Shown here: positions 27,710-28,756 of the stretch, in pieces | Layout of the letters: every line of letters begins with the position of its first letter | Numbering within the stretch: position 1 is the first letter of the stretch | IMG/VR virus record: IMGVR_UViG_2703718850_000006 | Span: 1-44,611 of that record | Reading direction: 5' to 3' (one strand) | Length of the DNA: 44,611 bases | Source: a virus | Lineage: Duplodnaviria > Heunggongvirae > Uroviricota > Caudoviricetes | Translations under genes and position numbers: made by a program | Notes under the pieces: generated by a model | Told to the model about the DNA's origin: nothing | The model's database searches: none | The model's input: only the letters and a program-made list of their open reading frames with translations

Positions 27710-28756
27710 TTAAAAATCTTTCGTTATTTCTCTGACCGTCTGATTAAAACGTTCCTCTTCCAGTTCCACGCCAATCGCCCTGCGTCCCAGCGACAGTGCC
27801 GCTTTTATTGTCGACCCCGACCCCATAAAAAAATCTGCGACCAAATCGCCAGGACGGCTGCTGGCAGTAATTATCTGACGCAACATATCCGCCGGTTTTT
27901 CACAGGGATGTTTGCCCGGATAAAACTGCACGGGCTTGTGCGTCCAGACATCCGTATAAGGAACGACAGCCGATACGGAAAAATAACGCCGCAGTGATTT
28001 GTATTCCTCCAGCAGGCTGGCATATTGCCGGTTCAGTTCACTGTATGTGCTGACCAGCTGGTGGTGTGGCTGCTCCAGTTCACCGCGCTGGTGTTTTTCT
28101 GCCGCCACACGTACAAACAGCGCCTGCAGTTTACTGTAATCGGCCTCATTCGGTAACTGCCACTGACTGGTACCAAACCAGTGCGAAGCCATGTTTTTCT
28201 TTCCGGTGGCTTCAGCTATCTGTTTTGACGTTATCCCCAGTGATTCACGCGCATCACGGAAGTAAGAAATCAGCGGGGCCATTACGTGCTGCTTAAGCTC
28301 GCGCCCTTTTGCTGCATAACCGTCACTTTTGAGCTGGTATGACCCCTGATAATGTTCAGCAAACAGAATGCGCTCTGTTGCCGGGAAATATGCCCGTAAA
28401 CTTTCCTTATTGCACCCGTTCCAGCGTCCGGACGGCTTCGCCCAGATAATGTGGTTCAACACATTAAAACGTTCACGCATCATGAGTTCGGTGTCAGATG
28501 CCAGTCGATGACCACAGAACAGGTAAAGACTTCCGGCAGGCTTCAGTACCCGCCAGAACTGCGCCAGACACTGGTCCAGCCATTGCAGGTAATCATCATC
28601 GCCCTTCCACTGGTTATCCCAGCCCTCAGGCTTCACTTTAAAGTATGGCGGGTCTGTGACTATCAGATCGACGGAGTTTTCCGGTAAGGTCCGGATAAAT
28701 TCCAGGCAATCAGCGTTGATTAACTCACAACTGGATATTTTTACAGTATTAGCCAT
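27710..28756 (-). CDS. DNA methyltransferase, beta-class N6-adenine/N4-cytosine type (orphan)
   Basis: 348-aa ORF; DPPY motif near the N-terminus and FxGxG (FFMGSGST) near the C-terminus; no adjacent restriction gene. Confidence 0.85.
   Translation of the reverse strand: MANTVKISSCELINADCLEFIRTLPENSVDLIVTDPPYFKVKPEGWDNQWKGDDDYLQWLDQCLAQFWRVLKPAGSLYLFCGHRLASDTELMMRERFNVLNHIIWAKPSGRWNGCNKESLRAYFPATERILFAEHYQGSYQLKSDGYAAKGRELKQHVMAPLISYFRDARESLGITSKQIAEATGKKNMASHWFGTSQWQLPNEADYSKLQALFVRVAAEKHQRGELEQPHHQLVSTYSELNRQYASLLEEYKSLRRYFSVSAVVPYTDVWTHKPVQFYPGKHPCEKPADMLRQIITASSRPGDLVADFFMGSGSTIKAALSLGRRAIGVELEEERFNQTVREITKDF

Follow-up and report, generated by a model that had tools for sequence, protein, structure and literature searches.

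Among the described relatives of the gene considered here are M.EcoGII and M.EcoGI, beta-class enzymes carried by prophages of E. coli O104:H4 C227-11 (EGT69837.1; PMC5778455). The biochemistry of this family was published in 2018, with M.EcoGII reported to methylate adenine in any sequence context (PMC5778455), and the enzyme is widely used as a chromatin-footprinting reagent (e.g. PMC10705563). Murray et al. wrote of a 'very large family' among E. coli prophages, silent in lysogens and slowing growth when over-expressed, and they named 1720a-02 as carrying a 'very similar' enzyme; M.EcoGI and M.EcoGII themselves were not expressed in C227-11 (PMC5778455). Published work lists homologues of 92-94% similarity as 'nonspecific' and reports two O111 lysogens in which no additional methylated motif was detected. 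Methylation of both DNA and RNA has been reported for all reconstructed ancestors, and no RNA sequence motif was detected for M.EcoGII, Anc291 or Anc284/SUPREM (PMC11551740). The same study described a four-helix-bundle domain plus a linker in M.EcoGII, and M.PflMI (CCANNNNNTGG) as the nearest site-specific relative of the M.EcoGII clade (PMC11551740).

The window, that is, the whole stretch of 44,611 nucleotides that was analysed (IMG/VR virus record IMGVR_UViG_2703718850_000006), contains a gene of this family, whose parts are as follows.

27710..28756, minus strand: methyltransferase coding sequence of the M.EcoGI/M.EcoGII family, ATG start, 348 aa, roughly 40 kDa, intact
28643..28654, minus strand: motif IV, catalytic DPPY, residues 35-38, aligning with the DPPY of the 9c3u/8urk chains
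27815..27829, minus strand: motif I, SAM-binding FxGxG in the form FMGSG, residues 310-314, aligning with the FMGSG of the 9c3u/8urk chains
27917..28411, minus strand: central region, residues 116-280 (helical target-recognition domain and charged helical linker), from the M.EcoGII alignment and AF2

The protein matches PF01555 (N6_N4_Mtase) over residues 29-340 (E = 1.3e-43; 150 bits against a Pfam cut-off of 26.7) and the PADLOC model MTase_II PDLC03265 at 2e-151, and NCBI already holds an identical protein (WP_061361069.1) under the automatic title 'site-specific DNA-methyltransferase'. The motif order is that of the beta class because motif IV comes before motif I, and the target-recognition region sits between DPPY and FMGSG, as in other enzymes of this class. 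The initial annotation had read the gene as a beta-class amino-methyltransferase from these two motifs, an assignment with which the domain match agrees; the motifs also hold on alignment, where D35, P36, P37, Y38, F309, F310, G312, S313 and G314 are invariant among 30 family sequences. Sequence searches retrieved several beta-class relatives, among them RsrI, CcrM, MboIIA and the 9c3u/8urk chains (M.BceJIV according to the Foldseek listing). Judged by domain and motifs, the window protein is a beta-class N6-adenine methyltransferase encoded by an intact gene. Since dN/dS against homologues is 0.06-0.11, central region included, the reading frame is under selection as a coding gene and did not arise by chance.

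Many prophage genes decay, and the window protein has Ser139 at a position where at least 90% of the homologues in the family alignment have Pro, which raises the question of a non-functional remnant in a cryptic prophage. However, the frame is full-length and keeps all invariant family residues, dN/dS is 0.17 against the 99%-identical C5 allele and within the low range given above against more distant ones, and the surrounding prophage carries genes for an integrase, a CI-like repressor, DnaB- and DnaC-like replication proteins, Q and lysis. We therefore give decay only the slimmest chance.

CcrM of Caulobacter and YhdJ of E. coli, to which the protein had been likened at the outset, are site-specific (GANTC and ATGCAT, respectively) and chromosomal. 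The likeness stands for the core fold, as all three share the PF01555 core, the beta-class permutation, DPPY and FxGxG, but it does not extend to the family: only two core blocks align, and the central domains are unrelated. Against the CcrM equivalog NF050803 the protein scores 73 bits (cut-off 830), with only the C-terminal block aligning, and against the PRK11524 equivalog NF008572, which we take to be the YhdJ model, it scores 112 bits (cut-off 292) in two separate blocks. When an AF2 model with a mean pLDDT of 64, built on a shallow alignment of 30 sequences, was compared with the PDB by Foldseek, the best 46 matches were all DNA methyltransferases, with CcrM first, then the beta-class enzymes M.BceJIV, MboIIA, RsrI, HpyAVI and PvuII, and after these the Type III Mod subunits. 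Within the central region, whose residues 147-237 are basic by calculation (pI 9.4), helices are predicted at 147-173, 177-184, 190-194, 204-223 and 231-255 with moderate to low confidence (local pLDDT 44-83). This low-confidence layout is consistent with the domain description of M.EcoGII (PMC11551740). The predicted model is enough to recover the beta-class fold and too weak for an analysis of the recognition domain.

Over its full length the window protein is about 84-85% identical to M.EcoGII (84% with the raw and 85% with the repaired copy), a value good to within 1-2% because the comparison sequence, a machine-read copy from the supplement of PMC11551740, has a few evident reading errors (e.g. 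NHHIW, GRRRAIG and TKVPQYY). Identity is highest in the N-terminal core (94%), followed by the C-terminal core (81%) and the central region (about 79%), without gaps across residues 121-270. The two proteins (348 aa against 349 aa in M.EcoGII) are separated by about 52 substitutions, 35 of them among the 165 residues of the central region, and their C-terminal tails differ. Among the reconstructed ancestors, Anc291 is 87%, Anc289 86% and Anc284 72% identical to the window protein; for M.EcoGII the identity to Anc284 is lower, at 69%. A rough neighbour-joining tree places the protein in an Escherichia/Citrobacter subclade together with M.EcoGII, L24 of phiP27 (a 'putative DNA methylase', 90% amino-acid identity) and the 'DNA methylase' of the Stx2 phage 1720a-02 (84%). 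The best match of the machine-read M.EcoGII sequence in phage records reaches at most 93.7%, and a homologue is present in about 35% of complete E. coli genomes.

The initial annotation had stated that target specificity is not predictable from sequence. We find that it is, because of this overall identity to M.EcoGII (about 79% in the target-recognition region) and the position within its subclade. By this comparison the target is probably any adenine, regardless of sequence, and for the M.EcoGII clade the automatic name 'site-specific DNA-methyltransferase' is probably a misnomer. The 35 of 165 central-region differences from M.EcoGII and the Ser139 in place of Pro count against reading the protein as non-specific.

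That automatic name is one of the points that would suit a site-specific orphan enzyme with a discrete motif, guarding against one restriction system or acting as a Dam- or CcrM-like regulator; others are the central region, which differs from M.EcoGII at about 21% of positions, and the site-specific M.PflMI as the nearest outgroup of the family (PMC11551740). Set beside the window protein by its description, M.PflMI has a similar predicted architecture with a helical target-recognition domain; however, it is only 27% identical to M.EcoGII and is without the charged linker present in the window protein (PMC11551740). Moreover, the window protein nests in a clade bracketed by M.EcoGII and active ancestors that were reported without detectable motif preference, purifying selection is uniform over the central region with no sign of diversification, and the scores fall far short of the CcrM and PRK11524 equivalog cut-offs. 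We consider a discrete recognition motif very unlikely. Near-context-free adenine methylation is also described for the promiscuous alpha-class phage methyltransferases of the M.HaeV/Hia5 type (PMC5778455), in which the motif order is opposite (FxGxG N-terminal, DPPY C-terminal); low specificity hence arose independently in the two classes.

The neighbourhood of the gene is that of a lambdoid late operon, with the following genes.

30899..31282, minus strand: Q antiterminator, 127 aa (PF06530, 5.5e-52; phrog_79)
29612..30718, plus strand: OmpC-family porin, an insertion that separates the Q gene from the candidate late promoter (PF00267, 8e-152)
28907..29104, minus strand: 65-aa winged-helix-like protein, first reading frame of the late operon (phrog_331, 1.4e-37, a family without assigned function)
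27419..27491, minus strand: tRNA-Gly (anticodon TCC), directly downstream of the methyltransferase (ARAGORN; Rfam tRNA, 45.6 bits)
25738..26942, minus strand: lysis cassette (PF16931, PF05449, and PF05838 with PF09374; PHROG holin and endolysin families)
26553..26942, minus strand: holin of the lysis cassette
26285..26575, minus strand: holin of the lysis cassette
25738..26304, minus strand: GH108 endolysin of the lysis cassette

The order is thus Q, porin insert, promoter-like site with terminator, 65-aa gene, methyltransferase, tRNA-Gly and lysis genes. As first noted, the methyltransferase lies upstream of the lysis genes, the holins and the endolysin following directly on the same strand. 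The porin gene has a GC content of about 0.40 and hairpins on its flanks, and it is annotated as ompC in a 95%-identical prophage of E. coli C5, whose annotation has terminase, portal and head-tail genes following the lysis genes. Judging from the list of reading frames alone, a virion structural region seems to occupy the upstream part of the window. An order of antiterminator, opposite-strand insert, small gene (where present), methyltransferase and lysis genes recurs in phiP27, 1720a-02 and prophages of Salmonella, Klebsiella and Erwinia. With phiP27 and 1720a-02 the window shares a module of conserved leader and terminator, 65-aa gene and methyltransferase, which follows Q and precedes the lysis genes; however, the Q allele of these phages is only 45-48% identical to that of the window, and phages of their type have the ileZ/argO tRNAs and stx2 downstream. 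The tRNA-Gly as downstream cargo likewise sets the window apart from the M.EcoGII locus.

No restriction endonuclease gene is adjacent, in agreement with the first reading of the sequence: the neighbours are the winged-helix protein, the porin, Q, the tRNA-Gly and the holins, and those scanned gave no match to a PADLOC defence model. All genes between 25738 and 31282 have an assignment, none of them as a cognate endonuclease, and no further methyltransferase or nuclease was seen among ten large early-region reading frames. Nor does a nuclease directly adjoin the methyltransferase in phiP27, 1720a-02 or the Salmonella, Klebsiella and Erwinia prophages. In phiP27 a gene of the GIY-YIG nuclease family occupies the slot in which the window has the porin gene, two genes upstream of the methyltransferase and between Q and the promoter.

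The 65-aa protein, which has a weak TrmB match (18 bits, under the Pfam cut-off), is 83-84% identical in the Salmonella and Klebsiella prophages. Its gene has 4682 locations in 2159 E. coli genomes, compared with 2609 for the methyltransferase; it precedes unrelated cargo in O103:H2 12009 and in one ST131 strain, and the Erwinia prophage that carries a methyltransferase homologue lacks it. The excess of copies, the other cargo and the absence from Erwinia rule out an obligate link, and a role as dedicated partner or controller of the methyltransferase is unlikely; by its distribution, the 65-aa gene is a frequent upstream neighbour that is not tied to the methyltransferase. A 237-aa HTH protein in the methyltransferase slot of O103:H2 is not a methyltransferase remnant.

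A small gene beside a prophage-encoded adenine methyltransferase also recalls M.EcoPA8orf6770P with PNB-2, an enzyme of Stx phages that methylates 16S rRNA and needs its partner for substrate choice (PMC10810198). That enzyme is of the MT-A70 type with DPPW and is encoded by a different gene (gp5), whereas the window protein has DPPY and a PF01555 domain and gave no MT-A70 match in the domain search; it is thereby ruled out as the identity of our gene and its small neighbour. Modulation by the 65-aa protein would parallel the redirection of this other methyltransferase to 16S rRNA by its small partner.

The natural substrate could also be single-stranded nucleic acid or RNA, for instance intermediates of replication, rRNA or mRNA, so that the enzyme would modulate translation or induction instead of protecting DNA. 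In vitro, M.EcoGII methylates RNA, single-stranded DNA and DNA:RNA hybrids; the partner-bound 16S rRNA methyltransferase (PMC10810198) is an example from Stx phages, and a small winged-helix gene stands directly upstream of the methyltransferase. However, the 16S rRNA enzyme is a different protein, as described above; M.EcoGII is more active on DNA, and its RNA activity is deemed promiscuous by the authors (PMC11551740). The 65-aa gene, moreover, is about twice as common as the methyltransferase, with the other cargo and the Erwinia exception already mentioned. We regard RNA or single-stranded nucleic acid as a very unlikely natural substrate. An in vivo role beyond anti-restriction, for instance with the 65-aa protein tuning substrate choice or timing, or with the 35 central substitutions conferring a sequence or RNA preference, seems to us quite improbable.

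The timing of expression would depend on elements between the Q gene and the lysis genes, which include the following.

29283..29310, minus strand: sigma-70 promoter-like site, candidate pR' (TTTACG, 16-nt spacer, TATGAT), from a consensus scan
29227..29252, minus strand: intrinsic terminator, candidate tR' (aaacccgcc-gttt-ggcgggttt, then a T run), read from the sequence
28903..28920, minus strand: second terminator-like hairpin, located at the 65-aa gene's stop codon, ahead of the methyltransferase start, from a terminator scan
26968..27134, minus strand: three terminator-like hairpins between the tRNA and the first holin gene, from a terminator scan

The candidate pR' matches the consensus at 9 of 12 positions, and such matches are not enriched in the region (4 found against 7.9 expected). 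We infer that it is the late promoter; it lies directly upstream of a conserved leader/terminator block, and the sequence upstream of this block differs in prophages with the 45-48% identical Q and is identical in C5, which has the same Q. The candidate tR' hairpin is predicted inside a fold of -20.9 kcal/mol; phiP27, 1720a-02 and E. coli C5 keep its stem and T run and differ in the loop. A terminator scan of 26900-31300 gave 13 sites against 4.3 +/- 1.8 expected. In Stx phages the late promoter is reported to fire constitutively, with its transcription ending at tR' in lysogens (PMC7547250), and the position of the methyltransferase in a lambdoid late operon fits expression after induction only. 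The small RNA StxS comes from the 258-nt leader that goes with another Q type (PMC7547250); the short leader from pR' to tR' is probably not its homologue, given this difference and an Rfam scan, leader included, with nothing beyond the tRNA and a sub-threshold mmgR match.

The initial annotation had also proposed that the enzyme might alter host epigenetics. Other prophage methyltransferases, e.g. M.EcoGIII, do reprogramme host gene expression; however, M.EcoGI and M.EcoGII are unexpressed in C227-11 and over-expression slows growth (PMC5778455), and the homologues in the O111 lysogens gave no detectable methylation. In the window, moreover, two terminator hairpins precede the gene, the first of them conserved, and the consensus scan found no promoter-like site between 28757 and 28906. 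Epigenetic reprogramming by an enzyme expressed in the lysogen is hence highly improbable.

The explanation that we find likely is a late-operon enzyme of the M.EcoGI/M.EcoGII family in lambdoid prophages of Enterobacteriaceae that is non-specific, Q-dependent and anti-restrictive. In the lysogen, late transcription from 29310-29283 would stop at the terminator 29252-29227, leaving the enzyme absent and the host chromosome unmodified. Upon induction, Q (30899..31282) would let RNA polymerase pass the terminators, and the 65-aa gene, the methyltransferase, the tRNA-Gly and the lysis genes would then be co-transcribed. The enzyme, probably a homodimer, would flip out adenine and transfer the methyl group of SAM to N6 in essentially any context, with its basic helical central domain binding DNA without reading bases. 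Progeny DNA would thus become heavily N6-methylated before packaging, and in the next host most Type I, II and III restriction that is sensitive to adenine methylation would be weakened.

This analysis established that the gene belongs to the family, keeps its motifs intact, is under purifying selection, sits in the late operon and lacks a nuclease partner; the non-specific activity, the silence in lysogens and the slower growth of over-expressing cells come from papers on close relatives. By analogy with these relatives, we infer that the window allele is likewise non-specific; its expression appears to be Q-dependent and its benefit to be anti-restriction. Protection of phage DNA, already suggested by the initial annotation, is also the role favoured in the literature.

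The gene is an ordinary member of the known M.EcoGII family, already held in databases, and adds little that is new on this point. A lysogen methylome would most likely reveal nothing of the enzyme, whose gene should stay silent before induction. Heavy m6A would also expose DNA to methyladenine-dependent Type IV nucleases. The literature that we searched holds no report of hypermethylated virion DNA for any phage with this methyltransferase gene, no report that the gene improves plating on restricting hosts, and no measured cost of hypermethylated DNA against methyladenine-dependent nucleases. As the gene occurs in about a third of complete E. coli genomes, an answer on the hypermethylation of packaged DNA would be of wide reach.

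The reading frame at 27710..28756 on the minus strand opens with ATG and encodes a protein of 348 aa, in which Pfam PF01555 (N6_N4_Mtase) covers residues 29-340 (E = 1.3e-43); the PADLOC Type II methyltransferase model (2e-151) and PHROG methyltransferase families also match. DPPY occupies residues 35-38 and FMGSG residues 310-314, and both are invariant in an alignment of 30 homologues that are 76-93% identical to the window protein. In a PDB sequence search the two core blocks aligned to the same motifs in the 9c3u/8urk chains (named M.BceJIV in the Foldseek listing), with RsrI, CcrM and MboIIA as further matches. 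The best 46 Foldseek PDB matches of the AF2 model, a modest one (mean pLDDT 64), are all DNA methyltransferases, beta-class enzymes coming ahead and Type III Mod subunits after. The exact ORF, the domain and the motif order confirm, far beyond chance, the initial annotation of an amino-methyltransferase with beta-class arrangement, while the proposed likeness to CcrM or YhdJ holds for the core fold but not beyond it, as both equivalog models were missed by a wide margin. Decay of the gene is contradicted by its intact frame and by purifying selection (dN/dS 0.06-0.11, central region included, against the homologues of phiP27, the Stx2 phage 1720a-02 and a Salmonella prophage).

What decides the identity of the protein is its close kinship in sequence to the characterised enzyme M.EcoGII. 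M.EcoGII, a 349-aa beta-class enzyme encoded by an E. coli O104:H4 C227-11 prophage, methylates adenine whatever the surrounding sequence (Murray et al. 2018, PMC5778455); the same paper put it in 'a very large family' found in E. coli prophages, with 1720a-02 named as bearer of a very similar enzyme. Our nucleotide searches matched the phiP27 'DNA methylase' at 90%, as well as the 'DNA methylase' genes of many Stx2 phages, 1720a-02 included. Full-length identity of the window protein to the M.EcoGII reference (GenBank EGT69837.1), a machine-read copy from the PMC11551740 supplement with reading errors, is 84%, or 85% once three obvious ones are repaired. By region, the unrepaired copy gives 94% (N-terminal core), 79% (residues 116-280) and 81% (C-terminal core), and the alignment is gap-free in the central domain and linker. 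Among reconstructed ancestors, identity is 87% for Anc291, 86% for Anc289 and 72% for Anc284/SUPREM; M.EcoGII itself shares only 69% with Anc284. DNA and RNA methylation was reported for all reconstructed ancestors, no RNA sequence motif was found for M.EcoGII, Anc291 or Anc284/SUPREM, and the nearest site-specific relative, M.PflMI, has just 27% identity to M.EcoGII (PMC11551740).

A rough neighbour-joining tree places the window protein, M.EcoGII, phiP27 L24 and the 1720a-02 enzyme in one Escherichia/Citrobacter subclade. Given this placement and the identity to a non-specific enzyme, the earlier statement that target specificity is not predictable finds no support, and a site-specific enzyme with a discrete recognition motif is unlikely, since phylogenetic bracketing speaks against it. 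In principle RNA could be the main substrate, since M.EcoGII methylates it in vitro, but that activity is regarded as promiscuous. O111 STEC strains have homologues of 92-94% similarity that are listed as 'nonspecific', and the lysogens carrying them showed no detectable methylation. For M.EcoGII, a lack of expression in the lysogen and slower growth of over-expressing cells have been reported (PMC5778455). By analogy with the literature on these close relatives, the window allele, which probably acts like them, would be non-specific, silent in lysogens and costly to growth when over-expressed. An identical protein already has a database entry from E. coli (WP_061361069.1/KXQ99291.1); of 5426 complete E. 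coli genomes, 1890 carry a homologous gene (at most 5 copies per genome), and Salmonella, Klebsiella, Citrobacter, Cronobacter, Pantoea and Erwinia also hold the family.

Genes for an integrase, a CI-like repressor, DnaB-like and DnaC-like proteins, Q and lysis are present in the window, which is a lambdoid prophage. The features around the methyltransferase are, in minus-strand order:

30899..31282, minus strand: Q antiterminator, first in the local order
29612..30718, plus (opposite) strand: OmpC-family porin gene, GC about 0.40
29310-29283, minus strand: promoter-like site TTTACG-16-TATGAT, a weak consensus match
29252-29227, minus strand: strong intrinsic terminator, between the promoter-like site and the 65-aa gene
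28907..29104, minus strand: 65-aa winged-helix-like gene, after the intrinsic terminator
28920-28903, minus strand: second hairpin, between the 65-aa gene and the methyltransferase
27419..27491, minus strand: tRNA-Gly(TCC), directly downstream of the methyltransferase
26968-27134, minus strand: a stack of three terminator-like hairpins, after the tRNA and before the first holin gene
Past these hairpins, at the end of the minus-strand order: two holins and a GH108 endolysin

The region 26900-31300 holds 13 terminator-like sites (4.3 +/- 1.8 expected). In the 95% identical prophage of E. coli C5, terminase, portal and head-tail genes come after the lysis genes; the upstream part of the window looks like a virion structural region, judging from the ORF list only. 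The porin insert parts the Q gene from its presumed site of action, and terminator-like hairpins lie between the porin 3' end and Q (30734-30766, minus strand; 30857-30874, plus strand). The late-operon slot of tRNA-Gly is occupied in Stx phages by ileZ/argN/argO tRNAs. Elsewhere, two adjacent paralogues of the early region (35550-36215 and 36212-36892, minus strand), each with Ash and Rha domains, form a tandem duplication, and an SPFH/Band-7 family gene near the integrase end (41603-42430, plus strand) may be accessory cargo.

The leader-plus-terminator block and the 65-aa gene are kept in phiP27, 1720a-02 and C5. Just upstream, the sequence diverges where Q proteins share only 45-48% identity, and is identical to that of the window in C5, which has the same Q. 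Such divergence with Q type is expected if a Q-specific promoter and qut region lie there, and 29310-29283 is a candidate late promoter. The late promoter of Stx phages reportedly fires constitutively, its transcripts ending at tR' in lysogens (PMC7547250). The terminator-before-gene layout would explain the reported silence of the M.EcoGII family in lysogens, and the late-operon layout predicts co-expression with the lysis genes once the prophage is induced. That silence and the terminators upstream contradict a role in lysogen epigenetics. Since no expression is expected in the lysogen, comparing its methylome with that of a cured strain would probably tell little; the material to use is an expressing strain or virion DNA. 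The leader runs for about 50 nt from the promoter-like site to the conserved terminator (29227-29310, minus strand), with no match in an Rfam search. Its position is analogous to those of the lambda 6S and Stx-phage StxS leader RNAs, and a short leader RNA could be made constitutively in lysogens.

The 65-aa protein (phrog_331, function unknown; TrmB match sub-threshold) keeps 83-84% identity across genera (Salmonella, Klebsiella). An obligatory tie to the methyltransferase is rejected: the block with the 65-aa gene was counted at 4682 places in 2159 of 5426 complete E. coli genomes, the methyltransferase at 2609 places; in O103:H2 12009 and an ST131 strain the genes that come after it are unrelated cargo; and it is missing from the Erwinia prophage. 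More plausibly it is the opening gene, and a very common one, of this late-operon type, and the slot after it takes one of several alternative cargos, the methyltransferase among them.

The order of antiterminator, opposite-strand insert, methyltransferase and lysis genes repeats in prophages of Salmonella, Klebsiella and Erwinia, where the antiterminators belong to three different families and the inserts are HicAB, an AAA_13 ATPase or unknown genes. None of these has a nuclease adjoining the methyltransferase, hence the designation 'orphan' was correct. The slot between antiterminator and late promoter has the look of a hotspot where accessory or defence genes collect: it contains a GIY-YIG nuclease in phiP27 (L002 6593-7822), a HicAB toxin-antitoxin pair in Salmonella (L004 3863-4501), an AAA_13 ATPase in Erwinia (L008 2182-4578) and the porin in the window. 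An unusual late-operon cargo, Cas1-like (PF01867) and AcrVA2-like (PF26125) genes, sits between the methyltransferase homologue and the holins in a Klebsiella michiganensis prophage (L006 7143-8808, minus strand).

Beta-class enzymes have been argued to act as dimers (PMC11551740, PMC7544214), and the reported dimer-interface segments are kept in the window protein except for S98N and P139S. Residue 139 (28339-28341, minus strand), within one such segment, is Ser in the window enzyme and Pro in at least 90% of the 30 homologues, M.EcoGII included.

The window gene, correctly spotted, is an ordinary member of the M.EcoGII family, characterised before, in its usual prophage position. A search of the available literature library found no direct test of an anti-restriction benefit for this family. 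Expression is probably controlled by Q: upon induction, Q-modified polymerase would pass the terminators, and the methyltransferase would be made during phage DNA replication and packaging. It would then methylate N6 of adenines whatever the context, probably as a homodimer. Progeny DNA would thereby become broadly resistant to adenine-methylation-sensitive restriction, and we infer that anti-restriction is the selective benefit of the gene.
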